A stretch of 32,000 nucleotides of DNA, taken from NCBI GenBank assembly GCA_965224465.1, contig OZ245049.1, positions 3,300,001 to 3,332,000 on the forward strand, in the 5' to 3' direction. The translations under genes and the position numbers were made by a program. Below, piece after piece: positions 1,354 to 22,131 of the stretch (the first letter of the stretch is position 1; each line of letters starts with the position of its first letter). Source of the DNA: Flavobacteriaceae bacterium (GTDB taxonomy: Bacteria > Bacteroidota > Bacteroidia > Flavobacteriales > Flavobacteriaceae). A model generated the notes under the pieces. That model searched no databases. It saw only the letters and a program-made list of their open reading frames with translations, and was not told where the DNA came from.

Positions 1354-1381
1354 TTGAACATGTTAATAAGTTGTAAATTTG
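1354..1381 (+). promoter_or_regulatory. Candidate Bacteroidetes sigma-A promoter for module 1
   Basis: TTG at 1354..1356 and TAAATTTG at 1374..1381 with a 17-nt spacer match the TTG / TAnnTTTG consensus. It is 46 nt upstream of the ATG at 1427. Confidence 0.45.
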
Positions 1382-1426
1382 CAAAGCAATAAAAAGTTGC
1401 AATCAAACATTTTTATCAATTCAAAT

Positions 1427-4147: not shown

Positions 4148-4174
4148 TAAAAAAATTAAATAAAATATTCAACA

Positions 4175-6868: not shown

Positions 6869-6896
6869 ATAGTTTTATTCATCTAAAAACAATGAT

Positions 6897-6923
6897 AAAA
6901 GGCGGCCAATTGGTCGCCTTTTT
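6897..6923 (+). terminator. Rho-independent terminator after module 1
   Basis: aaaaGGCGGCCaattGGTCGCCttttt. The GC-rich 7-8 bp stem has one G-U wobble and a 4-nt loop, and is followed by a T5 tract. It sits 29 nt after the stop at 6868. Confidence 0.7.
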
Positions 6924-7027
6924 ACGTGTTTAGGAAAGAGTAAAAAACAAACAAATATTTTTTAATTCGCTTCTTTTCTGTAACTTATAAAAAATTGCAA
7001 CCCCTTTTTAATTTTTAATTGCGAATT

Positions 7028-9751: not shown

Positions 9752-9768
9752 AATTTAAAGAAAATGTG

Positions 9769-12447
9769 ATGAAAAGATATAGAATGTTTTTTTTAGGCTT
9801 GATAATTTTATGTTTTTCTACATGTGTGGAGGATCAAAATTTTAAGACACCTGAAACTACGTGTATTCCACCAGTTTTGAAAGTAAATGCAACCATTGGA
9901 GAGGTGAAATCACTTTATAAAGGTACGGTAACACAAATTAAAGAAAAATTAATTATTGAAGGTTATGTGATTTCCTCAGATCTAAAAGGGAACTTTTATA
10001 GAACGTTGCACTTTCAAAATAGCCCAGATAATCCTACGGATGGTTTACAGTTAGATGTTGATATGCAACAGATGTACACAATGTATCCAGTAGGGAGTAA
10101 AATCATTATAAATACCCAAGGGTTGTATATTGATAATTACCATGGTGTACTAAAAATAGGAGGATTGTATCCGAAGTTTGGTGGTGGGGTTGGAGTTGGG
10201 CGCTTGTCTAGTGTATTGGCAAAAAAAGTAGTGCTTGTATCCTGTGATCCTCCAGTAAAAATAATTCCTAGACTTGTGAAAATTGAGGACTTAGATGATG
10301 CCATGATTCATACTCTTATTAAATTTGACAAGGTAGAAATTGCACCAGATTCACAGTGTCAGTCGTATGCTTTAGCTTCCAAAAACACCAGTGTTTTTGT
10401 ACGTGATTGTGAAGGGAATAGTATTGTTTTAAGAACTAGTGGCTATGCCGATTTTCAATCCGAATTGTTACCAGTGGGTAGTGGAGAATTACATGCAATT
10501 TTAGGAAAGTATAATGATAAGTTTCAAGTGACAATCCGTGATACCAAAGACCTAAACTTTGAGGGTGATCGATGTAATGGGGAGCATTTTACCTGTGTGG
10601 CTCCTACTGTGAATACTACAATACAGGATGTTAAAAACAAGTATCAAGGATCCTTATTACAGTTGAAAGAATCTCTTGTTTTTGAAGGGGTAGTAACGGC
10701 AAATGATAAAAGTGGGAATGCGTATAAGTACATATATGTACAGGATAAAACGGGAGGAATAAAAATTAAGATCAATCAAAAAGAATTGTATTTACGGGGG
10801 TTTAGTATCGGAAAAAAAATAGTAGTTGTATCTCAAGATTTGTACATCGATTCGCTTAGTGGAGAATTACAACTTGGCGGTTTATACGAAGGGAATTTAG
10901 GCAATATAGAGCGCTATGACATATTTAAACATTTTTTTGTAAGTGATAAAACAGTTGTTTTAATGCCTGAAAATTTAATGTTAAATGAGCTGTCAATGGA
11001 GGAAATTGGACGTTTTATACGGATTGATAAGGTACAGTTTATGGAGAAGGAATTGAATTTTGTAAGCGAAAAATCGAATGGATCTACACGTACCTTGGTG
11101 GATTGTATGGCAAATACGATTGATGTTCGAACCAGTAAATATGCTAATTTTGCAAAGGCGAAACTTCCATCAAAAATGGGAGCGGTGCAAGGGGTGCTCG
11201 GTTTTTATAATGGGAATTTTCAATTGTTTTTTCGAGATATTAATGATGTAAAATTGATGACAGAAGAACCCTGCAATGCCGTCGAAAATGGAAAATTTGT
11301 TACGGTGTCCGAAGTTCGGGATATGTTTTCAGGTTCGGTATTGAACAGCATTCAAAATATAAAAATAAAAGCTGTGATTACCTCGAATGCAGCTGAATTG
11401 AATATCACAGAAATTAGTGCTTTTATACAAGATAAAACAGCTGCTATTGCGCTTCGTTTTAGTAGTGCTCATGGCTTGAAATTCGGAGATGAAGTGGAAC
11501 TTTCTTTATTGGGTGCTAGTTTGGAAGAGTATAAAGGATTGTTACAGTTAAATCATATTCCAGTGGCGAATATTATCAGTACTCAGCCAGGTTTTTTACC
11601 GAGTCCGAAAACAATTACGCTGCCGCAAGCCTTGACTGGGGATTTCGAATCTATGTTGGTTAGGATCAAAAAAATTCAATTTAAAGATGTAGGAAAAACG
11701 TATAAAGGAGAGAATAAAATCACAGATTGTGTGAACGATTTAAATGTATATGTGCGTTATCAGTCCTTGTTTTCTGGGTTTAAAGTGAATGGGAAAAATG
11801 GTGATGTTACTGGGATTATGACGCAGTATGAAGTGCCACAACTCTATCTTAGAAAATCTTATGATGTTACTTTTTATGATGATTATATAGACTGTGCTTC
11901 GGTAGGAACTGTTGATTTTCCGCTTTTTATTTCAGAGATAGCAGACCCCAATAATAATTCTGGAGCGCGATTTATAGAACTGTACAATTCCTCCAGCGAT
12001 GTACAAAGTATGAATGGATGGCAGTTAAAACGGTATACAAATGCAAATACAACGAGTACAAAAAGCATTCAATTAGAAGGCTACACGATTCCTGCCAATA
12101 GTGCTTTTGTGATTTCTCCAAATGCATCAGAATTTTTGAAGATGTATGGATTTGAACCTGATTTAGGAGTTTCAAAAGGAGGTCCTGCAGATTCTAATGG
12201 AGACGATACCATTGTCTTATTAAATCCTACTGGTGAGGTGGTGGATATTTTTGGACGAATTGGGGAGGATGGTTCTGGAACCAATCACGAGTTTGAGGAT
12301 GGACGTGCTTTAAGAAATAAAAGTGTAGAGGTAGGAAATGCTGTTTTTAGCTTTTCAGAATGGACTGTTTGGAACGATACAGGTGCTGCGAATACAATAA
12401 AAGAACCACAAAATGCTCCCGATGATTTTAGCCCTGGAATTCGGTAA
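9769..12447 (+). CDS. Lipoprotein with three DUF5689-type repeats and a C-terminal lamin-tail domain (paralog 2)
   Basis: The track ORF starts at GTG 9766; ATG is at 9769. Lipobox ILCFSTC. It has the same three-repeat plus LTD layout as 4175..6868 (VNATIGEVKSLY, VNTTIQDVKNKY, VTVSEVRDMF; LFISEIADPNNNSGARFIELYNSS...NGDDTIVL). Confidence 0.75.
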   Translation: MKRYRMFFLGLIILCFSTCVEDQNFKTPETTCIPPVLKVNATIGEVKSLYKGTVTQIKEKLIIEGYVISSDLKGNFYRTLHFQNSPDNPTDGLQLDVDMQQMYTMYPVGSKIIINTQGLYIDNYHGVLKIGGLYPKFGGGVGVGRLSSVLAKKVVLVSCDPPVKIIPRLVKIEDLDDAMIHTLIKFDKVEIAPDSQCQSYALASKNTSVFVRDCEGNSIVLRTSGYADFQSELLPVGSGELHAILGKYNDKFQVTIRDTKDLNFEGDRCNGEHFTCVAPTVNTTIQDVKNKYQGSLLQLKESLVFEGVVTANDKSGNAYKYIYVQDKTGGIKIKINQKELYLRGFSIGKKIVVVSQDLYIDSLSGELQLGGLYEGNLGNIERYDIFKHFFVSDKTVVLMPENLMLNELSMEEIGRFIRIDKVQFMEKELNFVSEKSNGSTRTLVDCMANTIDVRTSKYANFAKAKLPSKMGAVQGVLGFYNGNFQLFFRDINDVKLMTEEPCNAVENGKFVTVSEVRDMFSGSVLNSIQNIKIKAVITSNAAELNITEISAFIQDKTAAIALRFSSAHGLKFGDEVELSLLGASLEEYKGLLQLNHIPVANIISTQPGFLPSPKTITLPQALTGDFESMLVRIKKIQFKDVGKTYKGENKITDCVNDLNVYVRYQSLFSGFKVNGKNGDVTGIMTQYEVPQLYLRKSYDVTFYDDYIDCASVGTVDFPLFISEIADPNNNSGARFIELYNSSSDVQSMNGWQLKRYTNANTTSTKSIQLEGYTIPANSAFVISPNASEFLKMYGFEPDLGVSKGGPADSNGDDTIVLLNPTGEVVDIFGRIGEDGSGTNHEFEDGRALRNKSVEVGNAVFSFSEWTVWNDTGAANTIKEPQNAPDDFSPGIR

Positions 12448-12458
12448 TTTCAAATGAT

Positions 12459-12595
12459 GGTTTAGAAATGGAATTATTTTTTGTTTTAACTAGACGAAAA
12501 CTCTAAGGATAGCCCTATCTATTGTTCTGTTTTTTAACAACGCTAGAACGTAAAACAACCTATTTATATCGATTATTTTGGATTGTAATTGGTAG
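12459..12595 (+). repeat. Right copy of the ~135-bp inverted repeat (partner at 50..182)
   Basis: ggtttagaaatggaattattttttgttttaactagacgaaaactctaaggatagccctatctattgttctgttttttaacaacgctagaacgtaaaacaacctatttatatcgattattttggattgtaa. It starts 12 nt after the stop at 12447. Relative to the flanking gene it has the same orientation as the left copy. Confidence 0.8.
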
Positions 12596-12619
12596 TAGTG
12601 ATTGTTCTGTTTTTAAGGA

Positions 12620-12792
12620 TCTGATTTAGAATTACACTTGTTATTTCTATCAAAAATAGAGATAGCTAAAAATATTAATTTTTCTGTGCGAGCGTACATT
12701 GTGGGGCATATTGTAGATTGTTTGTATAAGTGTCAATAAAAATTAAATAAAAACGATATGTATAAAAATAAAGAATTTATTTATCTGTTGTT
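12620..12792 (+). pseudogene. Decayed internal fragment of an I2-type immunity-like lipoprotein gene
   Basis: It aligns by eye to 17511..17690 inside the 17280..17837 gene (tctgatttagaatta...gagatagctaaaaa...gcgagcgtacattg.ggggcatattgtagattgtttgtataagtgtcaa.aaaaattaaataaaaacgata.gtataaaaa). It has a small deletion and an in-frame TAA where the intact gene has GAA. Both gene ends are missing. Confidence 0.85.
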
Positions 12793-13062
12793 TTAGATGA
12801 TTGATCACAGTTGTTGACTGGGAATGTTTTCAAGATATCATTGAGAACATTTACAAGAAAAAACGGTTAATTAAGAGCCATACGGTTACGAGTTTGTTTT
12901 ATGCTCCGTTAAATTAAACGGCACCGAAAAACCGTTAATTTGGTTTTAGTAAATAAAAAGACAGAAAAATCAACGATTTGACTTAGGCATAATTTAACGT
13001 TTATTCTATAAATGATATACGAAACAGCATGTTTGAACCGTTATATGTCTTTAAAATAAAAA

Positions 13063-13434
13063 ATGGGAAAAATTAAAATTAAGAGCTCGACTGTAGCAAA
13101 AATAATTATTGACAAAAAAGGATATGGAACAATAAAAAATGAAAATAAGGAATATGAGATAGAAAATGGACAACACGAAATTTATGCTAAATCTGCTTGG
13201 TGTGGTAGTCAAAAAATAACAGTAAATATTACAGATGATAAAATTATAACATTGACTCTAAATAGTTTTAAAAATGAAGGTATTGTTAAAGCTGTATTTA
13301 TGTTATTAGCTGGACTTCTTATATTTACTAAAAACGTAATCTTCGGGATAATTGCAGGGGTAGTGTTTTTGTATCCATTATATTATGTAACAATTGGAAA
13401 AGATAAATATTTAGAATTAGTTGAGATTACATAA
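13063..13434 (+). CDS. Hypothetical small membrane protein
   Basis: 123-aa ORF with ATG preceded by an A-rich leader. The soluble N-half is followed by two hydrophobic stretches (AVFMLLAGLLIF, IFGIIAGVVFLYPLYYV). I recognise no family. Confidence 0.5.
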   Translation: MGKIKIKSSTVAKIIIDKKGYGTIKNENKEYEIENGQHEIYAKSAWCGSQKITVNITDDKIITLTLNSFKNEGIVKAVFMLLAGLLIFTKNVIFGIIAGVVFLYPLYYVTIGKDKYLELVEIT

Positions 13435-13582
13435 TATAATTAAATATTGGGTAGTGTCAACCATGAACTCAAAATCCCTGCTCTCGATTGTTTCGTGTGG
13501 TTTTAGGAGCTTAAGAGTACTTAAAACGAATTCTTTTACTAAAAATAATTAAATTGGTAGTATGCAGATTGTATATCTTTTG

Positions 13583-13590: not shown

Positions 13591-13773
13591 GAAAATGTTA
13601 TATAACGTATGCGTGTTACTGTATTAGAATTAAATACAGAATACACGGCATTAACGTAGTGTAGCTATCACGGATATACCTTAATTTTAGAGGGATTGTG
13701 GATGTATTTGGGTTGCAACAAGACTGCTAACACAAACGGCATAAAAAAACAAACAAACAAACAAAACAAAATA

Positions 13774-14460
13774 ATGAGTTTTAAACTTAAAGTATTTATT
13801 GATGGAGAAGAAAGTAATGTATTAAGATATAACTTAAATTTAAGTCAAAGTTCTGACATTACAGGAAGACCTACTCAAAAACCTGTCTTACAAAAACTTT
13901 TATTAGTGTTAGAATCTAACAATAAAATTGATTTGATGCAGTGGATGATTTCTCCAAATCAAACTAAACAAATAGAACTGCACATTCAAGAACGACAAGG
14001 AGAAAGAACAAGAATTCTTTACTTTTCGGATGTTAACTTAGTCGGTTTAGAAACCACATTTTCTGCTACAGGAAATATACCTATGACAGATAATTTACAG
14101 ATTACTGCTGCAGGGCTCAATACAAACAATTCTGCTGTTGAATATTCTGCATCTTGGAGAACTACTTTTCCTGAACAAGAAGCAGAAGTAACAACTATTG
14201 AGCAAGAAAGAAAAATAACTAGTTATTACTTAACGAATACAGAAAATAATAAGATAGAAGATTATAATATTGATGATATTATATTGTTGAATATTAAAAC
14301 TGAAAATCGAATAGGAGATGTAATGACCATCAACTTAAATGATAAAAAGCATGATTTTGAATATAACGGAATTATCTTAGAGAACGATACTCTTAAAAAC
14401 ATTAAAATTGAAAATAATTTAGAACAAATTGAGTTAAAAGTAGTAGCTCAAACAGTATAA
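13774..14460 (+). CDS. tssD: Type VI secretion tube protein TssD/Hcp-like with a ~100-aa C-terminal extension
   Basis: The track ORF starts at TTG 13696; ATG 13774 follows an A/C-rich leader. The N-terminal ~128 aa follow the Bacteroidetes TssD pattern as I recall it: MSFKLKVFIDGEESNVLRYNLNLSQSSDITGRPTQKP, LESNNKIDLMQWMISPNQTK, YFSDVNLVGLETTF, IPMTDNLQITAAGL, ...SASW. Residues ~129-228 (14158..14457) are extra. Confidence 0.65.
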   Translation: MSFKLKVFIDGEESNVLRYNLNLSQSSDITGRPTQKPVLQKLLLVLESNNKIDLMQWMISPNQTKQIELHIQERQGERTRILYFSDVNLVGLETTFSATGNIPMTDNLQITAAGLNTNNSAVEYSASWRTTFPEQEAEVTTIEQERKITSYYLTNTENNKIEDYNIDDIILLNIKTENRIGDVMTINLNDKKHDFEYNGIILENDTLKNIKIENNLEQIELKVVAQTV

Positions 14461-14464
14461 ACGT

Positions 14465-16078
14465 ATGAAAAAAACAGGATTTACCATCTCATTTGAAGAC
14501 GGAGAAACGTTAACAAGATATTTAACACCAGTATTACAAGCAGAATATATAGTTGCCATAAAACCAAAAGATTTTGATGGAAGTTATGGAATAGATTGGT
14601 GTGAAATGAGTACTGACCTTACAAAAATTGAAAAATTTCAAGAAACCAATGTAGCAGATATTAGCCACGTTCTAGATAAAGCTACAACACAATTTAAGGC
14701 TAGCCCAACAACTCAAGATAAACAAAATTATGTCCGAGACTTATATGTTTTTGAAAGTTATTACGGAAAAGAGATGCCTATTACTTGGGTAAACTTAGCC
14801 TACGATAAGGTAGCAACTTTAGAGATAACGCCTTTGTTAATAAATGGTAAAAGGAATAAAAAAACAGATTTTTTAACCATTGAGAAAAATGACAATTTTA
14901 AAATATCATACAAGGGGACTACTGATGAAGACAGTAATCCGAATATAAAAATAGAAAAACTGAAAGATGGCAAAGCTCAAGAAATTGAAATTACAGCGTT
15001 AAAAACTTTTTCTCAAGCGCAAGAAATAATTATAAAAGATTATTTAGGAAAAGAAGTCGGAAAAATAGAAATGGTAGCTAATGATGTGCTAGATTTAAAT
15101 GTGAAAATTATTCCAGTAGTACTCAATCATACTTCACAAGTAGCAGATGCTCAAAATATATATGCTGCTGCAATAAAAGCAGAAAACATTGATAAGGATA
15201 GTCTAAAAACAACATTACAAACTAAATCATTTAACCAAACAGGTGTAAACTGTATTATAGAACCCCTAAAAGCTATTCCAGAATGCATAGTAATAGATGT
15301 TACTAAAGACAATTGGAGTGAGTTTTATAAAGGAGGCATATTTCAAAATTGGGATTATTCCAGTACAACGGTAAAACCTATTGTTTCTAAAGATGAAGAT
15401 GGAGATAAACGCTATCATACTAGAGATATGGGGACGGAACGTTTTTTACTTGATAAATTAGAAGATCATTATTATAAAAAATACGGAAAAAATCATAAGG
15501 GAGCCTTGGTTTTTGTTACAGATAAAAATTATATAATTCCAAATTTACAAGGCTATTCGCAAACAGACCCTATACGAAGCCAAGGAACAGTTATATTTAA
15601 ACCTGGTTTAGGTGATGCTACTGTTTATGCGCACGAATTAGGGCATATGTTAGGACTTGAACATAACTTTGTTAATGATATTAATGAACTTACAAGCATA
15701 AATGATAACTTAAATAATTTAACACGCAACAAAAGTGTTGCCGATAAAAAACAAGAAATCGAAGAAGATATAGCTTTTAAAGAAAATTATATTAAAGTAG
15801 ATATAGAAAAAATAAACGATTTGAAAACGGTACGTGAACAATCACAATCTATAAAAAATAAAATTTTAGATATCCAAGAAGCAATTAAAAACACTCAAAA
15901 TTCTATCATCCAACTAAAGGATAAATTACAAAGAATAGATATTAAAACTACTACAGCTAATTTTAAAGTAACAAAAGGTAAATCTAAAAACTATATGGAT
16001 TATATAAATAACAGAACTTTTTTTAGTAAATATCAATCCCAAATAGTAAAAGAGGAGCTTATTAAATTTTATATATGA
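14465..16078 (+). CDS. Putative T6SS-associated polymorphic effector with a metzincin-type zinc metallopeptidase domain
   Basis: 537 aa with no signal peptide (MKKTGFTISFEDGETL). The ATG lies 5 nt after the tssD-like stop. The zinc motif HELGHMLGLEH (15632..15664) is HExxHxxGxxH. The Met-turn-like NYMDY (15989..16003) resembles the M43 ulilysin/pappalysin flavour. The stop overlaps the next ATG (ATGA at 16075..16078). Confidence 0.7.
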   Translation: MKKTGFTISFEDGETLTRYLTPVLQAEYIVAIKPKDFDGSYGIDWCEMSTDLTKIEKFQETNVADISHVLDKATTQFKASPTTQDKQNYVRDLYVFESYYGKEMPITWVNLAYDKVATLEITPLLINGKRNKKTDFLTIEKNDNFKISYKGTTDEDSNPNIKIEKLKDGKAQEIEITALKTFSQAQEIIIKDYLGKEVGKIEMVANDVLDLNVKIIPVVLNHTSQVADAQNIYAAAIKAENIDKDSLKTTLQTKSFNQTGVNCIIEPLKAIPECIVIDVTKDNWSEFYKGGIFQNWDYSSTTVKPIVSKDEDGDKRYHTRDMGTERFLLDKLEDHYYKKYGKNHKGALVFVTDKNYIIPNLQGYSQTDPIRSQGTVIFKPGLGDATVYAHELGHMLGLEHNFVNDINELTSINDNLNNLTRNKSVADKKQEIEEDIAFKENYIKVDIEKINDLKTVREQSQSIKNKILDIQEAIKNTQNSIIQLKDKLQRIDIKTTTANFKVTKGKSKNYMDYINNRTFFSKYQSQIVKEELIKFYI

Positions 16079-16094
16079 AAACAATAAGTATTTT
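15491..16094 (+). repeat. Exact 604-nt direct repeat, copy 1 (expressed effector 3' third plus first 20 nt of the downstream gene)
   Basis: Block-by-block comparison with 17861..18464 shows no mismatch, with an offset of exactly 2370 nt. Identity starts at aatcataagggagcc. It ends at 16095 (t) versus 18465 (a). Confidence 0.9.
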
Positions 16095-16656
16095 TAAAAA
16101 GATTAGTTTACTATATGTTTTTATAGTTTTTGTTTCTTGTAGTTCTTCTATGGTGCTTAAGTACAATACTATACCTGCTGGGGGGGTTGCTTACAAGCAA
16201 CTTGATGTTTTTGGAGGATATATATGGCACAGAGATAAAAAAGGAAAAATTAATATTAATAAAAAAAATCTTCAAAATATTTACATAATTACTAAAAATG
16301 GTAATGAAGACTATTTTGAATTTTTAGAGAGTTATTCTTTTTTTTTATGCAGTCATAGTGATAAACGTCGTATCGCTAAGAGTTTAAATTTTTCAGAAAG
16401 AACTTTGGTTGCAGCTTATTGTGTAGAGTATCTTTATAAATGTCAAAAAGAAATTAGTGAAAGTAATATGTATAAAAATTACAGGTTAGTTAGACTTTTT
16501 TTGAGAACAGATAACGGCGATAGTAACAAGTACAATCGAGAGTTCAAAAAACACGATTACTACGGTTTAAAATTATTAAAAAAACACCATTTAAAACATT
16601 ATAAATATTTCCCGGATTTAGATACAATACGCTATAAAAAAAGTATTAGTGATTAA
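16075..16656 (+). CDS. Lipoprotein, putative immunity protein I1
   Basis: 193 aa with lipoprotein signal MKTISIFKKISLLYVFIVFVSC. It is translationally coupled to the effector (ATGA). It shares the invariant C-terminal tail NKYNREFKKHDYYGLKLLKKHHLKHYKYFPDLDTIRYKKSISD with six downstream paralogs. Confidence 0.7.
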   Translation: MKTISIFKKISLLYVFIVFVSCSSSMVLKYNTIPAGGVAYKQLDVFGGYIWHRDKKGKININKKNLQNIYIITKNGNEDYFEFLESYSFFLCSHSDKRRIAKSLNFSERTLVAAYCVEYLYKCQKEISESNMYKNYRLVRLFLRTDNGDSNKYNREFKKHDYYGLKLLKKHHLKHYKYFPDLDTIRYKKSISD

Positions 16657-16679
16657 AGATGTAGGGTTAATGCTTCTCT

Positions 16680-17270
16680 AATCATAAGGGAGCCTTGGTT
16701 TTTGTTACAGATAAAAATTATATAATTCCAAATTTACAAGGCTATTCGCAAACAGACCCTATACGAAGCCAAGGAACAGTTATATTTAAACCTGGTTTAG
16801 GTGATGCTACTGTTTATGCGCACGAATTAGGGCATATGTTAGGACTTGAACATAACTTTGTTAAAGATTTTAAAGATCTTACAAGCATAAATGATGACTT
16901 AAATAATTTAACACGCAACAAAAGTGTTGCCGATAAAAAACAAGAAATCGAAGAAGATATAGCTTTTAAAGAAAACTATATAAATGATGATATAAAAAAA
17001 GTAGAAGAATTAAAAGTTAAAGATAAACTATCAGAAAAAGAAAAAAAAGAACTGCAGGGATTACAAGAAAATATTGATGAAACAGAAAAATCTATTCAGA
17101 AATTAAGAAATAGGTCACAAAAGATAGATGTACAAACCACTGTAGCTAATTTGAAAGTAGCTGAAGGAAAAACTAAAAACTATATGGACTATATAAGTAA
17201 TAGAATTTATTTTGCTAAATACCAAGCAGAAATAGTGAAGAAAGAAGTTGTCGATTTTTATCAAAAATAA
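16680..17270 (+). pseudogene. Start-less effector C-terminal cassette B (orphan/silent toxin module, divergent variant)
   Basis: It is homologous to effector codons ~343-537. The first ~184 nt are identical to 15491.., and it diverges after ~300 nt. It keeps HELGHMLGLEH and NYMDY. An in-frame TAA lies 4 codons upstream of the homology start and there is no ATG. The M at 16695 in the track is a TTG that encodes Leu in the full-length gene. Confidence 0.8.
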
Positions 17271-17279
17271 AATAAGATT

Positions 17280-17837
17280 ATGAATTTTATAAAAAGAAGT
17301 AGTTCTCTTCTTATTGTTTTATGTTTGTTTTTTTCATGCACTACATATAAAAAAATAACAGAAGAGAGTTTAATTGATGAAACATTTCCTGACATCAATG
17401 TTTATGGTGGGTTTTTATGGTCTAAGAAAAAAAATAAGACTATATTAATTCATTACAAAAATTTGAAACGAATAATTAAATTAACAAAAAAAAGTGATAA
17501 TATTTTTTTTTCTGATTTAGAATTATACCTGTTGTTTCTGTCAAAAAAGAGAAAAGAGATAGCTAAAAACATTAACTTTTCTGAGCGAGCGTACATTGCG
17601 GGGCATATTGTAGATTGTTTGTATAAGTGTCAAGAAAAATTAAATAAAAACGATAGGTATAAAAACAAGGAATTTATTTATCGATTATTGTCTCCGTGGG
17701 ATAGTAACAAGTACAATCGAGAGTTCAAAAAACACGATTACTACGGTTTAAAATTATTAAAAAAACACCATTTAAAACATTATAAATATTTCCCGGATTT
17801 AGATACAATACGCTATAAAAAAAGTATTAGTGATTAA
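17280..17837 (+). CDS. Lipoprotein, putative immunity protein I2 (most divergent N-terminal two thirds)
   Basis: 185 aa with lipobox LCLFFSC. The ATG lies 9 nt after the cassette B stop. It has the same invariant C-terminal tail as I1. Confidence 0.7.
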   Translation: MNFIKRSSSLLIVLCLFFSCTTYKKITEESLIDETFPDINVYGGFLWSKKKNKTILIHYKNLKRIIKLTKKSDNIFFSDLELYLLFLSKKRKEIAKNINFSERAYIAGHIVDCLYKCQEKLNKNDRYKNKEFIYRLLSPWDSNKYNREFKKHDYYGLKLLKKHHLKHYKYFPDLDTIRYKKSISD

Positions 17838-17860
17838 AGGTGTAGGGTTAATGCTTCTCT

Positions 17861-18448
17861 AATCATAAGGGAGCCTTGGTTTTTGTTACAGATAAAAATT
17901 ATATAATTCCAAATTTACAAGGCTATTCGCAAACAGACCCTATACGAAGCCAAGGAACAGTTATATTTAAACCTGGTTTAGGTGATGCTACTGTTTATGC
18001 GCACGAATTAGGGCATATGTTAGGACTTGAACATAACTTTGTTAATGATATTAATGAACTTACAAGCATAAATGATAACTTAAATAATTTAACACGCAAC
18101 AAAAGTGTTGCCGATAAAAAACAAGAAATCGAAGAAGATATAGCTTTTAAAGAAAATTATATTAAAGTAGATATAGAAAAAATAAACGATTTGAAAACGG
18201 TACGTGAACAATCACAATCTATAAAAAATAAAATTTTAGATATCCAAGAAGCAATTAAAAACACTCAAAATTCTATCATCCAACTAAAGGATAAATTACA
18301 AAGAATAGATATTAAAACTACTACAGCTAATTTTAAAGTAACAAAAGGTAAATCTAAAAACTATATGGATTATATAAATAACAGAACTTTTTTTAGTAAA
18401 TATCAATCCCAAATAGTAAAAGAGGAGCTTATTAAATTTTATATATGA
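17861..18448 (+). pseudogene. Start-less effector C-terminal cassette A' (identical to the expressed effector 3' third)
   Basis: It is 100% identical to 15491..16078 and is preceded by the unit-end motif ...gttaatgcttctct. There is no ATG; the track start at 17876 is the same internal TTG (Leu). Its stop overlaps the next ATG at 18445..18448. Confidence 0.8.
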
Positions 18449-18464
18449 AAACAATAAGTATTTT
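17861..18464 (+). repeat. Exact 604-nt direct repeat, copy 2
   Basis: See 15491..16094. Confidence 0.9.
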
Positions 18465-19020
18465 AAAAAAGATTAGTGTATTCTTTATTTTTGTTTTGGT
18501 TGTTTCTTGTAAACCTACAAAAACACTAAAATCTAACACGATAATAAAAGGTGCCTCTACCTATGAACAACTTAATAAGTTTGGAGAATATATATGGTTC
18601 AAGGATTCAAAAGGAAAAGTTAATATTAATAAAAAAAATCTTCAAAACATTTATACAATTACTAAAAATGGTAATGAAGAATATTTTTATTTTTTAACAT
18701 CCTACTCTTATCTTTTAGTTGTTGATAAATCAAATATTGCTAAGAGTTTAAATTTTTCAGAAAGAACTTTGCTTGCAGCTTATTGTGTAGAAAACCTCTA
18801 TAAATGTCAAAAAGAAATTAGTGAAAACAATATGTATAAAAATTACAGGTTTGTTAGACTTTTTTTGAGAACAGATAACGGCGATAGTAACAAGTACAAT
18901 CGAGAGTTCAAAAAACACGATTACTACGGTTTAAAATTATTAAAAAAACACCATTTAAAACATTATAAATATTTCCCGGATTTAGATACAATACGCTATA
19001 AAAAAAGTATTAGTGATTAA
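18445..19020 (+). CDS. Lipoprotein, putative immunity protein I3
   Basis: 191 aa with lipobox FVLVVSC. ATGA overlap with cassette A'. Invariant C-terminal tail. Confidence 0.7.
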   Translation: MKTISILKKISVFFIFVLVVSCKPTKTLKSNTIIKGASTYEQLNKFGEYIWFKDSKGKVNINKKNLQNIYTITKNGNEEYFYFLTSYSYLLVVDKSNIAKSLNFSERTLLAAYCVENLYKCQKEISENNMYKNYRFVRLFLRTDNGDSNKYNREFKKHDYYGLKLLKKHHLKHYKYFPDLDTIRYKKSISD

Positions 19021-19175: not shown

Positions 19176-19228
19176 GTAAATATCAATCCCAAATTGTAAA
19201 AGAGGAGGTCATTAAATTTTATAAATGA
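19176..19228 (+). pseudogene. 53-nt vestige of the effector 3' end (unit 1)
   Basis: gtaaatatcaatcccaaattgtaaaagaggaggtcattaaattttataaatga matches effector 16026..16078 (gtaaatatcaatcccaaatagtaaaagaggagcttattaaattttatatatga). The ATGA overlap with the next gene is retained. An in-frame stop lies upstream. Confidence 0.8.
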
Positions 19229-19800
19229 AAACAGTAAATAATTTAAAAAAGATAGGTGTATTCTTTATTTTTGGTTTGGTTGTTTCTTGTAAAACTACAA
19301 AAACACTAAAATATAGTACTTTGATAAAAGGAGAGTCAGTTTACAAGAGATTTGATGTTTTTGGAGGATATATATGGCACAGAGATAAAACAGGGAAAAT
19401 TAATATTAACAAAAAAAATCTTCAAAATATTTACATAATTACTAAAGGAGGAAATGACGCGTTTTTTGAATATCTAGATCTTTATACACGACATTTATGT
19501 GGGCATAAACGGCGTGTTTCTAATAGTTTAAATTTTCCAGAAAGAACCTTAGTTGTTGCTTATTGCGTTGAGTATCTTTATAAATGTCAAAAAGAAATTA
19601 GTAAAAATAATATGTATAAAAATTATAAGTTTGTTTATCGTTTTTTGAGAACAGATAACGGCGATAGTAACAAGTACAATAGAGAATTAAAAAAACACGA
19701 TTACTACGGTTTAAAATTATTAAAAAAACACCATTTAAAACATTATAAATATTTCCCGGATTTAGATACAATACGCTATAAAAAAAGTATTAGTGATTAA
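19225..19800 (+). CDS. Lipoprotein, putative orphan immunity protein I4
   Basis: 191 aa with lipobox FGLVVSC and the invariant tail (REL instead of REF at its start). Confidence 0.7.
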   Translation: MKTVNNLKKIGVFFIFGLVVSCKTTKTLKYSTLIKGESVYKRFDVFGGYIWHRDKTGKININKKNLQNIYIITKGGNDAFFEYLDLYTRHLCGHKRRVSNSLNFPERTLVVAYCVEYLYKCQKEISKNNMYKNYKFVYRFLRTDNGDSNKYNRELKKHDYYGLKLLKKHHLKHYKYFPDLDTIRYKKSISD

Positions 19801-19955
19801 AGGTGTAGGGTTAATGCTTCTCTAATCAAATGTGTAGTGTGATTTATGTTAGTTTAAGTAATACTAAAGCTAGTTCTAGAAATCTAATCCCCTTAGAGTA
19901 AGAAAGTTTACTTTAGAATCAATTATTATAAGTTGCCTGAAATTAAATGGGGATT

Positions 19956-20008
19956 GTAAATATCAAGCCCAAATTGTAAAAGAGGAGTTAATTAAATTTT
20001 ATAGATGA
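19956..20008 (+). pseudogene. 53-nt vestige of the effector 3' end (unit 2)
   Basis: It occupies the same position and has near-identical sequence to 19176..19228. Confidence 0.8.
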
Positions 20009-20580
20009 AAACAATAAATAATTTAAAAAAGATAGGTGTATTCTTTATTTTTGGTTTGGTTGTTTCTTGTAAAACTACAAAAACACTAAAATCTGCTACC
20101 ATAATAACAGGGGAATCTATTTACGACCAATTTGACAATTTTGGAGAATATATATGGTACAGAGATAAAAAAGGAAAAATTAATATTAACAAAAAAAATC
20201 TTAAAGAAATTTATAATATCACTAAAAAAGGAAATGAAGAATCTTTTGAATTTTTACAGAGTTACACCTTGCATTTAAGTAGTGATAAACGTCGTGTCGC
20301 TAAAGGTTTAAACTTTTCAGAAAGAACCTTGGTTGCTGCTTATTGCGTAGAGTACCTCTACAAGTGTGAAAAAGAAATTAGCAAAGAAAATATGTATAAA
20401 AATTATAGGTTTGTTAGACGCTTTTTGAGACCATATGGTAGCGATATAAATAACTACAATCGAGAATTAAAAAAACACGATTACTACGGTTTAAAATTAT
20501 TAAAAAAACACCATTTAAAACATTATAAATATTTCCCGGATTTAGATACAATACGCTATAAAAAAAGTATTAGTGATTAA
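20005..20580 (+). CDS. Lipoprotein, putative orphan immunity protein I5
   Basis: 191 aa with lipobox FGLVVSC. The middle is variable (…RFLRPYGSDINNYNREL…) and the tail is invariant. Confidence 0.7.
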   Translation: MKTINNLKKIGVFFIFGLVVSCKTTKTLKSATIITGESIYDQFDNFGEYIWYRDKKGKININKKNLKEIYNITKKGNEESFEFLQSYTLHLSSDKRRVAKGLNFSERTLVAAYCVEYLYKCEKEISKENMYKNYRFVRRFLRPYGSDINNYNRELKKHDYYGLKLLKKHHLKHYKYFPDLDTIRYKKSISD

Positions 20581-20735
20581 AGGTGTAGGGTTAATGCTTC
20601 TCTAATTAAATGTGTAGTGTGATTTATGTTAGTTTACGTAATACTAAAGCTAGTTCTAGAAATTTAATCCCCTTAGAATAAGAAAGTTTATTTTAGAATC
20701 AATTATTATAAGTTGCCTGAAATTAAATGGGGACT

Positions 20736-20788
20736 GTAAATATCAATCTCAAATAGTAAAAGAGGAGTTAATTAAATTTTATAAATGA
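20736..20788 (+). pseudogene. 53-nt vestige of the effector 3' end (unit 3)
   Basis: It occupies the same position and has near-identical sequence to 19176..19228. Confidence 0.8.
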
Positions 20789-21351
20789 AAACAATAAATA
20801 ATTTTAAAAAGATAAGTGTATTCTTTATTTTTGTTTTGGTTGTTTCTTGTAAACCTACAAAAACACTAAAATCTAATACCGAAATTATAGGGAGATCTGC
20901 TTATGACGAGTATAATGCTTTTGGAGAATATATATGGTATAGAGATAGTAAAGGGGGAATTAGTATTAATAAAAAAAATCTCAAAAAAATTTATGCAATG
21001 ACTAAAAAAGGAAATATAGAATATTTTGAATTTTTAGAGGGTTATACTGCACATTTAAGTAGGGATAAACGGCGTGTTGCTAAAAGTTTGAATTTTTCAG
21101 AAATAACTTTTGTTACAGCTTATTGTGTAGAGAACCTCTATAAGTGTCAAAAAGTAATTAGCAAAAATAATTTCTTTAAAAAGTATAAATTTGTTAATCG
21201 TTTTTTAGGAGTAAATATTAACAAGTACAATCGAGAGTTCAAAAAACACGATTACTACGGTTTAAAATTATTAAAAAAACACCATTTAAAACATTATAAA
21301 TATTTCCCGGATTTAGATACAATACGCTATAAAAAAAGTATTAGTGATTAA
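20785..21351 (+). CDS. Lipoprotein, putative orphan immunity protein I6
   Basis: 188 aa with lipobox FVLVVSC. It has a 3-codon deletion relative to its paralogs just before the invariant tail. Confidence 0.7.
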   Translation: MKTINNFKKISVFFIFVLVVSCKPTKTLKSNTEIIGRSAYDEYNAFGEYIWYRDSKGGISINKKNLKKIYAMTKKGNIEYFEFLEGYTAHLSRDKRRVAKSLNFSEITFVTAYCVENLYKCQKVISKNNFFKKYKFVNRFLGVNINKYNREFKKHDYYGLKLLKKHHLKHYKYFPDLDTIRYKKSISD

Positions 21352-21506
21352 AGGTTTAGGGTTAATGCTTCTCTAATCAAATGTGTAGTGTGATTTATGT
21401 TAGTTTACGTAATACTAAAGCTAGTTCTAGAAATCTAATCCCTTTAGAATAAGAAAGTTTATTTTAGAATCAATTATTATAAGTTGCCTGAAATTAAATG
21501 GGGACT

Positions 21507-21559
21507 GTAAATATCAATCCCAAATTGTAAAAGAGGAGGTCATTAAATTTTATATATGA
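21507..21559 (+). pseudogene. 53-nt vestige of the effector 3' end (unit 4)
   Basis: It occupies the same position and has near-identical sequence to 19176..19228. Confidence 0.8.
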
Positions 21560-22131
21560 AAACAATAAATAATTTTATAAAGATAAGTGTATTCTTTGTT
21601 TTTGTTTTGGTTGTTTCTTGTAAACCTACAAAAACACTAAAATCTAACACGATAATAAAAGGTGCCTCTACCTATGAACAACTTAATAAGTTTGGAGAAT
21701 ATATATGGTTCAAGGATTCAAAAGGAAAAGTTAATATTAATAAGAAAAATCTCGAAAAAATTCATATAATCTCGAAAAAAGGGAATATAGAATATTTTAA
21801 TCTTTTAACATCTTACTCTTATCTTTTAGATGTTGATAAATCAAATATTGCTAAAAGTTTAAATTTTTCAGAAAGAACTTTGGTTGTAGCTTATTGTGTA
21901 GAATGCCTCTATAAATGTCAAAAAGAAATTAGTAAAAACAATATGTATAAAAATTATAAGTTTGTTTATCGTTTTTTGAGAACAGATAACGGCGATAGTA
22001 ACAAGTACAATCGAGAGTTCAAAAAACACGATTACTACGGTTTAAAATTATTAAAAAAACACCATTTAAAACATTATAAATATTTCCCGGATTTAGATAC
22101 AATACGCTATAAAAAAAGTATTAGTGATTAA
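21556..22131 (+). CDS. Lipoprotein, putative orphan immunity protein I7 (mosaic of I3-, I6- and I4-like segments)
   Basis: 191 aa with lipobox FVLVVSC. 21621..21750 is nucleotide-identical to the matching part of I3 (18511..18640). The C-terminal half matches I4 (SKNNMYKNYKFVYRFLRTDNGDSNKYNRE). Confidence 0.7.
   Translation: MKTINNFIKISVFFVFVLVVSCKPTKTLKSNTIIKGASTYEQLNKFGEYIWFKDSKGKVNINKKNLEKIHIISKKGNIEYFNLLTSYSYLLDVDKSNIAKSLNFSERTLVVAYCVECLYKCQKEISKNNMYKNYKFVYRFLRTDNGDSNKYNREFKKHDYYGLKLLKKHHLKHYKYFPDLDTIRYKKSISD

Follow-up and report, generated by a model that had tools for sequence, protein, structure and literature searches.

A recent cassette transfer as the probable origin of identical effector tips beside two candidate immunity genes in a flavobacterial locus

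How does one effector end come to stand in front of two different lipoprotein genes? In the 32-kb stretch of flavobacterial DNA analysed here (the window, to which all positions refer; every feature lies on the + strand), positions 15491–16094 and 17861–18464 agree at 604/604 positions, at an offset of 2370. The first-pass annotation had reported this identity with its offset and both edges, and direct comparison confirmed it. The edges are sharp: 15490 differs from 17860 and 16095 from 18465, neither side extends by even 1 base, and 100-nt windows flanking the repeat at the same offset show ~30% identity on the left and 58–85% on the right. Within 12.4–22.5 kb this is the longest exact repeat, the runner-up measuring 205 nt, and chance is not an issue as its source. 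The repeat starts within the open reading frame 14465–16078 (537 codons), at codon 343 (position 15491), and copy 1 comprises, as originally annotated, codons 343–537 of the effector gene E1 with its stop and the opening 20 nt of the lipoprotein gene I1 (16075–16094). Copy 2 comprises an orphan effector tip, A′ (17861–18448), and the first 20 nt of a second lipoprotein gene, I3. The tips are identical and the lipoprotein genes behind them are different paralogues, which bears out the earlier description of one tip beside two different candidate immunity genes.

The repeat lies in an AT-rich region (13.7–22.1 kb) containing a TssD/Hcp gene, E1, the lipoprotein genes I1–I7, the truncated tips B and A′ and four 53-nt scars. 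The TssD/Hcp-family gene (13771–14460) matches Pfam TssD (PF17642, E=4.4e-25, residues 2–129), has a C-terminal extension of ~100 aa and presumably encodes the carrier of E1. Upstream of the module, at 12620–12785, there is an I2-like pseudogene fragment with an in-frame stop, a 6-nt deletion and 89% identity to the interior of I2 (17511–17682). The host is a marine-type flavobacterium. A Pfam search found no T6SS core genes in the 32-kb window, whose flanks consist of SusC/DUF5689 pairs and housekeeping genes, and this counts against a secretion module. The link of the family to type VI secretion comes from related loci. In L001–L007 the effector homologue is directly preceded by a TssD homologue, and the order TssD–effector–lipoprotein is kept in six related loci from Aquimarina, Cellulophaga, Algibacter and other Flavobacteriaceae, the contig of a seventh ending within the effector gene; in Tenacibaculum (L003), TssD and the effector are kept and the downstream gene is different. 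In Aquimarina (L001) ClpV and TssC (E=2.9e-242) come next after the trio, and four E1 homologues are fused to VgrG domains. The TssD match, the synteny, the ClpV/TssC neighbourhood and the VgrG fusions support the effector/immunity reading, and the region is probably an auxiliary type VI secretion effector module of the Bacteroidota type, in which a cassette has recently been transferred.

In the AF2 model of the full-length E1 (537 aa; pLDDT 78.8), N-terminal beta-sandwiches are followed by a metzincin-like domain with HELGHMLGLEH, a long helical hairpin, the motif NYMDY and a C-terminal helix. Metzincin Pfam matches are weak and lie under the gathering thresholds; a fold search returned ADAMTS, ADAM and archaemetzincin with probabilities of 0.97–1.0 and low TM-scores, and a profile search with E1 hit the catalytic domain of ADAMTS-5 (E=6e-4). 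The 27 homologues share HExxHxxGxxH without exception and N[YF]MDY almost without exception, while the hypervariable segment between them is the hairpin (residues 425–489) of the E1 model. We infer that the C-terminal half of E1 is a metzincin-like zinc peptidase, which would act on a periplasmic target with the hairpin as specificity determinant. In Pseudomonas aeruginosa, the T6SS delivers VgrG2b, whose C-terminal zinc metallopeptidase exerts its toxicity in the periplasm and has a cognate immunity protein that counteracts it (Wood et al. 2019, PMC6899460). Some E1 homologues are likewise VgrG fusions, but VgrG2b has no cassette array, is absent from the PDB fold and profile matches of E1 and has no detectable sequence relationship to it.

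Tip B (16680–17270) and A′ both correspond to the last 195 codons of the effector and begin at one microhomology junction, AATCA. B is identical to A over 185 nt and near-identical to about nt 300, after which its hairpin region diverges (dS 0.73, dN 0.46). Both orphans lack an ATG or GTG start, the sole in-frame candidate being a TTG 5 codons in, as well as the N-terminal half of the catalytic domain; alone, neither can be a deliverable toxin, and A′ is probably silent. In the AF2 model the cassettes start at residue 343, ahead of the catalytic-domain strand 347–351. What had been called a toxin tip is therefore real as an identical tip but is not an autonomous domain, since it starts mid catalytic domain and its zinc motif sits in the part common to all three copies; cassette exchange varies only the hypervariable hairpin and not a whole toxin domain. 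That common part forms a 185-nt handle (15491–15675, identical at 16680–16864 and 17861–18045) encoding beta-strands and the zinc-binding helix. A second handle (16519–16679) consists of the 3′ end of the lipoprotein gene, whose last ~111 nt are identical in every I gene, and a spacer of 22–26 nt. Both handles are continuous at 16519–16864 and 17700–18045, where 346 nt differ by one base. Further on, the 204-nt spacer before I4 ends in an A-like 53-nt scar of the effector 3′ end (19176–19228), with equivalents at 19956–20008, 20736–20788 and 21507–21559; the four are 90.6–94.3% identical to the 3′ end of tip A, and the one preceding I7 is the most A-like (94%). Arrays of short tip scars and I genes also occur in five related loci.

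Among the lipoprotein genes, I1 (16075–16656; 193 aa, signal peptide and Cys22) adjoins the expressed effector, I2 (17280–17837), an outlier with ~50% amino acid identity to the others, is paired with tip B, and I3 (18445–19020) follows A′. I4, I5, I6 and I7 (19225–19800, 20005–20580, 20785–21351 and 21556–22131) form an orphan paralogue array of 771–780-nt units (19225–22131). I1 and I3 had been described as strongly divergent through their first two thirds, with peptide strings that agree with the translations. Identity in that part is indeed 68%, but the two are mosaic paralogues that agree at 77.7% of amino acids overall and 95.7% over residues 101–193, their differences being concentrated in two blocks, residues 23–60 and 81–100 (50% identity each). 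The informative sites of I3 are I7-type at 53/53 in columns 34–177 and 25/26 in columns 239–302, and I1-type or mixed in the remainder, with I1-type segments (columns 1–30, 191–235 and 308–424) interleaved with the I7-type blocks; the N-terminal blocks of I3 and I7 are identical. A close relative (L011) carries the same I genes in another order, I7′-I6′-I5′-I6-IS21-I7, including an IS21 insertion. The mosaic genes and this reordering suggest that recombination in the array is ongoing.

Within the region matching the repeat, tips A and B differ at dS 0.7–1.4 (0.73–1.41 in the variable part, 0 in the handle); synonymous sites are saturated between allelic tips at this locus. Against this background, zero differences between the A copies, synonymous sites included, indicate recency and not constraint. 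Orthologous I genes of this strain and L011 differ by 0–0.9%, which makes the event at least as recent as the divergence of the strains. An intact expressed effector gene and a promoter-less, 5′-truncated cassette with perfectly identical tips bear out the core of the earlier proposal of a very recent gene conversion or duplication; most probably, a very recent event of non-reciprocal recombination made cassette A′ and the expressed gene identical. The left end at 15491 is uninformative on the crossover because it coincides with the truncation point common to both cassettes, B included. As for the proposed 3′ crossover at the start of the immunity gene, the right end does fall at nt 21–33 of the lipoprotein gene, but with I3 being a patchwork of I1-type and I7-type segments, it is one junction among many.

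In the mechanism proposed here, the 185-nt tip handle with its zinc site and the I-gene 3′ end with its spacer would serve as handles for RecA-type recombination, flanking the parts that vary, namely the helical hairpin of the effector and the two N-terminal blocks of the lipoprotein. The newest event would be the one recorded in the 604-nt identity, a transfer whose tract would run from some point in the common handle to nt 21–33 of the lipoprotein gene. The homology at this right-hand junction, 20–33 nt, is short for RecA and counts against the proposal. Cassette A′ would have been copied into the expressed gene in place of an older tip. I1 would then be a holdover, the immunity gene that belonged to this older tip, and protection against tip A would come from I3 and I7. 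The evidence leans slightly towards this direction: in the independent strain L008 an A-like tip end lies upstream of a lipoprotein with an I3-like mature N-terminus, and the most A-like scar is the one preceding I7. A database search found no close strain that carries the effector region and would allow main and orphan tips to be compared between strains.

A copy in the opposite direction, of the expressed tip A into the array over an older orphan tip upstream of I3, is somewhat less likely. On this reading A and I1 would be the original cognate pair, and the tip once matched by I3 and I7 would have been lost, making these two orphan immunity genes. Within its first 30 nt, I3 has variants that elsewhere accompany I1-type genes: nt 14 and 17 are G and T as in I1, where I4–I7 have A and A, and T17 is also found in the gene with an I1-like signal peptide in L008. 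Moreover, the single AATCA junction of both orphan tips resembles copy-in by homology-facilitated illegitimate recombination, the mechanism proposed for the arrays of Vibrio cholerae (PMC5361080). However, these variants amount to two informative sites, a silent overwrite without phenotype would receive no selective push to fixation, and both the L008 pairing and the A-like scars upstream of the I3-like genes I4–I7 fit poorly.

Tandem duplication of a whole unit (tip A, I gene and spacer, ~1.18 kb), followed by patching of one I gene with I7-like conversion tracts, is improbable. Three tip–lipoprotein units do recur with a period of 1181–1189 nt, and I3 retains I1-type segments between its I7-type blocks. 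Yet these segments are only ~91–93% identical to I1, compared with 100% over the adjacent 604 nt, and must therefore be older than the event that equalised the tips; in addition, the unit B–I2 sits between the two copies, and the step in identity at nt 21–33 of the I gene already disfavours such an origin.

The proposed transfer would carry a different meaning if the lipoproteins were not immunity proteins, for example if they formed a variable family at the surface or in the periplasm or served the peptidase as substrates, the repeat then reflecting ordinary concerted evolution in a gene family. The family has no relative in Pfam, NCBIfam or PDB, which leaves some room for this view, itself similarly improbable. 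Against it, the next gene after the effector homologue is an I homologue across genera, effector 3′ scars occur within the I arrays, and tip and lipoprotein diverge jointly, B and I2 both being outliers. The I lipoproteins have no acidic residues after the Cys, which, in view of the known lipoprotein export signal of Bacteroidota, suggests retention facing the periplasm. Synteny and the signal peptide thus point to I1–I7 as periplasm-directed immunity candidates.

Least probable is an assembly artefact, in which a wrong path through exact repeats (185 nt; 346 nt with one mismatch) created the E1 tip or the second copy: the repeat is bounded by sequences common to all units, short reads could not phase across 185–346 nt, and a database search found no independent assembly of the region, but the source genome is one 5,241,564-bp contig, as closed assemblies from long-read or hybrid data typically are, which argues against a draft artefact, the junctions from tip A to I1 and to I3 share only 20 nt downstream, so that both need read support, and a wrong path could assign the wrong tip to expression, whereas two A copies would exist in any case.

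The proposed cassette transfer has parallels in known systems. In the cdiA-CT/cdiI and rhs-CT/rhsI orphans, a full-length gene is followed by 5′-truncated C-terminal fragments, each with an immunity gene (Poole et al. 2011, PMC3150448; Koskiniemi et al. 2014, PMC3967940). As in the present locus, each truncated tip comes with an immunity gene, recombination through a block homologous to the main gene can bring an orphan to expression, and a tip that is an orphan at one place can be the main tip elsewhere. Those cassettes, however, are complete autonomous toxin domains after VENN or PxxxxDPxGL, with unrelated activities and unrelated immunity proteins, whereas the present cassettes begin partway through the catalytic domain and have the catalytic motif in their handle, only the hairpin varies and the immunity candidates are all paralogues. 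Delivery relies on CdiB or an Rhs shell there and, as predicted, on a Bacteroidota T6SS/Hcp here; the Salmonella event fused the main rhs with an orphan fragment (PMC3967940), whereas the present one would be a non-reciprocal copy with both sites retained. The available part of the account of Neisseria MafB (Jamet et al. 2015, PMC4287609) likewise describes silent mafB-CT/mafI cassettes without start codons, an immunity gene after each, and recombination with the full-length gene inferred from genome comparison; there, the secretion route is another and the cassettes are whole toxin domains, and that part describes no 100% in-genome duplicate of main gene and cassette beside a different immunity gene.

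In the T6SS clusters of V. cholerae, orphan immunity arrays lie downstream of the effector–immunity pair, and earlier replacements have left behind pieces of effector 3′ ends (Kirchberger et al. 2017, PMC5361080). The I4–I7 units with their 53-nt scars fit this pattern of sequential displacement, but the V. cholerae arrays hold unrelated immunity families gained by transfer, whereas here all seven genes are mosaic paralogues that end in the same 3′ sequence, and the long tips preserved in two units could still recombine back. Gut Bacteroidales carry minor Hcp–effector modules, whose dedicated Hcp genes co-segregate with effectors, and rAID arrays, whose divergent orphan immunity proteins can retain high-affinity binding to the effector and neutralise it (PMC13213661; PMC12247911). 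The host group and the effector and immunity families differ from ours, and no recombinase adjoins the I array, unlike in rAID arrays; such neutralisation nevertheless bears directly on the possibility that I1, too, protects against tip A. The orphan-cassette theme is already known. Here it is found in an unstudied toxin/antidote family, and the 604-nt identity would be a recent mark left by cassette swapping, by which bacteria diversify their toxins.

The effector gene E1 (14465–16078, plus strand), encoding a 537-residue type VI secretion system (T6SS) effector, lies between a TssD/Hcp-family gene (13771–14460, plus strand; Pfam TssD) and I1 (16075–16656, plus strand), the first of seven paralogous lipoprotein genes, I1–I7, that are candidate immunity genes. 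Two orphan, 5′-truncated effector tips follow on the same strand, each with a lipoprotein gene behind it: tip B (16680–17270) with I2 (17280–17837), and tip A′ (17861–18448) with I3 (18445–19020). I4–I7 form four further plus-strand units of 771–780 nt, the last ending at 22131, and each consists of a 204-nt spacer and a lipoprotein gene. The last 53 nt of each spacer reproduce, at 90.6–94.3% identity, the 3′ end of tip A, the part of E1 from codon 343 to codon 537; these scars read KYQSQIVKEE[LV]IKFY*, with an ATGA overlap at the next start codon. The G+C content of the locus is 24–30%, against 33–39% in the flanks. No recombinase gene was found among the ORFs of at least 60 aa between 12.4 and 22.4 kb, where every ORF is accounted for, and the flanks hold housekeeping genes; this sets the array apart from the rAID orphan immunity arrays of gut Bacteroidales.

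Exchange is evidenced by the identity between the main gene and A′. Positions 15491–16094 and 17861–18464 are identical at 604 of 604 positions with an offset of 2370 nt, and the edges fall exactly where the first-pass annotation had placed them. This is the longest exact repeat between 12.4 and 22.5 kb, the second longest being 205 nt. It starts at codon 343 of the 537-codon ORF and spans the stop codon and 20 nt of the next gene. Since the alleles are otherwise saturated at synonymous sites, the absence of any difference marks the copy as very recent, and the earlier proposal that the tip was lately copied between the expressed gene and A′ is borne out. The event is no older than strain-level divergence, as orthologous I genes differ by 0–0.9% between the window and L011, the single close relative that the searches turned up. 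The left edge of the identity is merely the start of cassette homology and holds no crossover information, because both long orphan tips begin at this same base, where they join the spacer through a 5-nt microhomology, AATCA. On the right side, the two copies first disagree at nt 21 of the lipoprotein gene and then again at about nt 34, which leaves nt 21–33 as the probable end of the conversion tract and agrees with the 3′ junction previously suggested at the very start of the immunity gene.

The direction of transfer can be argued both ways. The A′ tip may have moved into the expression site, a change that alters the phenotype and is hence selectable; selection after an orphan cassette was brought into expression is documented for Salmonella Rhs orphans (PMC3967940). 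The same direction is favored by an independent strain (L008), in which an A-like tip end stands before a lipoprotein with an I3-like mature N-terminus, and by the A-like scars that stand before the I3-like genes I4–I7. Conversely, the expressed tip may have been copied into the cassette: within its first 20 nt, I3 has two sites of the I1 type and not the I4–I7 type, and the AATCA junction resembles a copy-in from the expressed gene. Whichever the direction, the cell holds I1, I3, and I7. In Bacteroidales, divergent orphan immunity proteins still bind the effector with nanomolar affinity (PMC12247911); by analogy, protection may also come from I1, with its 78% identity to I3.

An assembly artifact is less likely. 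The blocks common to the copies (handles), one of 185 nt in the tips and one of 346 nt when the tip handle is counted with the I-gene 3′ end and spacer, could mislead a short-read assembler as to which tip follows the E1 N-terminus, and the two copies of the 346-nt handle differ at only one base. Against this, the junctions from A into I1 and from A into I3 share only 20 nt downstream, so that two A copies are needed in any path, and the source is a single 5.24-Mb contig. A recent duplication of the whole unit, later patched, is ruled out by the I1-type parts of I3, whose identity to I1 is only ~92% (range ~91–93%). Positive selection as the source of the variability was likewise rejected, with pairwise dN/dS mostly below 1 and dS saturated.

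The part of E1 that is exchanged can be placed on a predicted fold. The motif HELGHMLGLEH occupies residues 390–400, of which H390, E391, H394, G397, and H400 do not vary among the 27 homologues aligned. A candidate Met-turn, N[YF]MDY (N509/M511/D512/Y513), lies ~110 residues after the zinc motif and is nearly invariant in the same homologues, while the segment between the two motifs is hypervariable across the whole family. Pfam matches around the zinc motif (M43/M10/Reprolysin) stay below their cut-offs. Foldseek returns ADAMTS4, ADAM22, a snake-venom metalloproteinase, and archaemetzincin with probabilities of 0.97–1.0, with TM-scores that are low (0.2–0.46), and the family profile matches the ADAMTS-5 catalytic domain at E=6e-4. 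The AlphaFold model of E1 (mean pLDDT 78.8) comprises beta-sandwiches (residues 1–205), an alpha/beta catalytic subdomain whose active-site helix spans 385–395, a long helical hairpin (425–454, 461–489), and a C-terminal helix. Altogether, this supports the prediction of a metzincin-like peptidase.

In this model the cassette opens at residue 343, just ahead of one of the core beta-strands in the catalytic domain. As the cassette start lies inside that domain, an orphan tip alone, so predicted, cannot be a working or deliverable toxin. The first 185 nt, which encode the zinc site, are identical in all three tips. Tips A and B remain nearly identical to about nt 300, beyond which the hairpin shows a dS of 0.73 and a dN of 0.46, and the end a dS of 1.41. 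HExxHxxGxxH thus sits in the invariant part and the A/B difference is mainly one helical hairpin, so that the exchanged part would be essentially the hairpin.

The lipoproteins carry a signal peptide ending at Cys22. They have no match in Pfam or NCBIfam, and a fold search of the PDB with a helical AF2 model (pLDDT 80.5) gave no neighbor, the best hit having E=2.8. The seven genes are paralogues with 48–88% amino acid identity, their last ~111 nt are identical in all copies, and this identity runs on into the spacer. The interiors are mosaics with a dS of 0.4–1.4. The variable blocks are thus, on the sequence evidence, old alleles rather than products of recent hypermutation, and the handles have a dS of zero. 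I3 illustrates the patchwork: it is I1-type in columns 1–30 and 191–235, I7-type at 53/53 informative sites in columns 34–177 and at 25/26 sites in columns 239–302, and mixed thereafter. I3 and I7 are identical in residues 22–60; I1 and I3 differ in two short blocks, and I7 equals I3 in the first of these and nearly so in the second. Tip B is an outlier and so is I2, in keeping with a tip and a lipoprotein that diverged together. An immunity role of the I proteins is indirectly indicated by synteny, the lipoprotein signal peptide, and the B/I2 co-divergence. A PADLOC scan returned nothing meaningful.

A separate feature of these proteins is their C-terminus. At the 3′ ends of the I genes (e.g., 18883–19020), a His/Lys-rich C-terminal part of ~45 residues, beginning NKYNREFKKHDYYGLKLLKKHHLKHY, is kept even in genera where the rest is ~40% identical. 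The segment NKYNREFKKHDYYGLKLLKKHH within the C-terminal region is kept across genera, and the part coding for the ~45 residues is nucleotide-identical in seven of the seven window copies. The C-terminus is a candidate constant inhibitory module, possibly touching the zinc site.

In silico, the effector family is firmly linked to the T6SS. Upstream of E1, the TssD/Hcp-family gene has a Pfam TssD (PF17642) match at E=4.4e-25 and 88 bits (cut-off 25.8) and ~100 extra C-terminal residues. TssD also adjoins the effector homologue in seven related loci (L001–L007), and the TssD–effector–lipoprotein trio is kept in Aquimarina, Cellulophaga, Algibacter, and other Flavobacteriaceae at ~50% identity. 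In Aquimarina (L001), genes for a ClpV-like AAA+ protein and TssC (E=2.9e-242) come after the trio, and four effector homologues (P0024, P0082, P0088, P0108) are fused to VgrG (Phage_GPD/Phage_base_V). Across the 32 kb of the window, the flanks consist of SusC/DUF5689 pairs and housekeeping genes. The family is small: at E≤0.001 it comprises 275 of 1.84 billion cluster representatives, and at E≤1e-30 it comprises 42. The L007 contig ends inside the effector gene. In Tenacibaculum (L003), TssD and the effector are retained and the downstream gene encodes a MORN-repeat protein, not an I-family member. Such a MORN-repeat-like protein follows the effector homologue at 11659–12741 of L003 and at 941–1570 of the Logan contig L022; the effector family thus seems to have two or more unrelated families of candidate immunity proteins as partners. 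Tandem effectors occur at 7005–13500 of an uncultured Flavobacteriaceae contig (L005), where TssD–E–I is followed by a second effector, shorter at its N-terminus, that has I genes and tip scars of its own.

L011, a 6.2-kb metagenome contig (ENA ERZ25073217 ctg7664l), covers the I array only. Its order is I7′–I6′ (13-nt gap)–I5′–I6–IS21–I7; with the same genes differently ordered, the array, as read from these two sequences, is expanded and reshuffled relative to the window and is rearranging between strains. The IS21-family element (Mu-transposase_C_2 and IstB; 3150–5820 of L011) lies within the spacer that separates I7 from a copy of I6. Effector-tip scars are also present in L002, L004, L005, L006, and L013. 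Short scars were common across the ten related loci surveyed, and long recombination-competent orphans were seen in the window only. Elsewhere, L022 carries a single truncated tip ORF that stands alone and has a different gene behind it. Close strains were sought for the tip in their expression site, and the best effector homologue was 57% identical; a metagenome scan gave relatives at ≤53% identity only. The exact-sequence clusters of E1, I1, and I2 hold this genome alone, P0063 in the E1 cluster having proved spurious.

Several other features of the region deserve mention. A decayed I2-like fragment (12620–12785) lies upstream of the module, just after a DUF5689/LTD gene; it is 89% identical to 17511–17682, contains an in-frame stop and a 6-nt deletion, and suggests a trace of an earlier array or a rearranged island boundary. 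Between this fragment and TssD is an ORF (13063–13434) for a 123-aa protein with a hydrophobic C-terminal half and no family match. The upstream flank (1379–12447) contains, twice in tandem, genes for a SusC-like TonB-dependent receptor paired with a DUF5689/lamin-tail-domain (LTD) lipoprotein (1379–4147/4175–6868 and 7019–9751/9766–12447), preceded by an Exo_endo_phos_3 nuclease gene on the opposite strand (221–1279); these genes look like a duplicated locus for extracellular nucleic-acid uptake. MgtE, KsgA, SerRS, and RibF are encoded downstream. A scan of the window for sigma-70 promoters and terminators gave counts no higher than in shuffles, and this consensus is the wrong one for Bacteroidota. 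For the Bacteroidota −7 motif TAnnTTTG, one site upstream of TssD (13583) is plausible, and the 204-nt spacers have none. This single site is weak evidence because the motif is only marginally in excess (67 in the window vs. 54.2 in shuffles, with 1 of 100 shuffles reaching 67). A promoter-like form of the −7 motif, TAACTTTG, is present in the handle of every tip, in the HNFV codons (15664–15671, 16853–16860, 18034–18041); it could drive the downstream lipoprotein genes, or may be a chance match.

For CDI, Rhs, and Maf toxins, recombination with orphan cassettes is well established (PMC3150448, PMC3967940, PMC4287609). The present locus resembles those systems in having a full-length gene, downstream 5′-truncated fragments (B, A′) each followed by an immunity candidate (I2, I3), and a shared block that permits recombination, here the 185 nt identical in three tips. 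The main departure is that the cassette lacks a whole toxin domain: in those systems, cassettes are complete toxin domains of unrelated activities after a demarcating motif, whereas here the cassette starts in the middle of the catalytic domain. I4–I7, in turn, resemble the sequential-displacement arrays of Vibrio cholerae, orphan immunity genes with effector 3′ remnants (here 53 nt and A-like; PMC5361080). Unlike those arrays, which comprise different, horizontally acquired immunity families (PMC5361080), the seven genes here are paralogues with identical 3′ ends and mosaic interiors. The system therefore fails one defining feature of each type.

A tentative reading, which we regard as more doubtful than probable, is that some Flavobacteriaceae operate a pilE/pilS-like cassette system on a T6SS effector. 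Only the immunity-recognition hairpin between the metzincin zinc motif and the Met-turn would change, with the toxic activity kept; the long orphans and homogenized handles would be maintained for this purpose, and a co-evolving mosaic array, made up of a single lipoprotein immunity family, would combine a constant C-terminal inhibition module with swappable N-terminal specificity blocks. If this is true, the 604-nt identity is a switch caught just after it happened. To our knowledge, in-genome snapshots of a just-finished exchange are uncommon, and a search for a comparable recent exchange in Bacteroidota-type T6SS effectors outside the gut Bacteroidales found none. The locus also defines an uncharacterized effector family, several of whose 275 cluster representatives are fused to VgrG, and an uncharacterized candidate lipoprotein immunity family with no relative of solved structure. 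With one toxin tip beside two immunity paralogues that differ in two short blocks, it provides a natural experiment: the search for specificity determinants is narrowed to ~60 residues, and the choice between one-to-one and broad immunity becomes directly testable at this locus.
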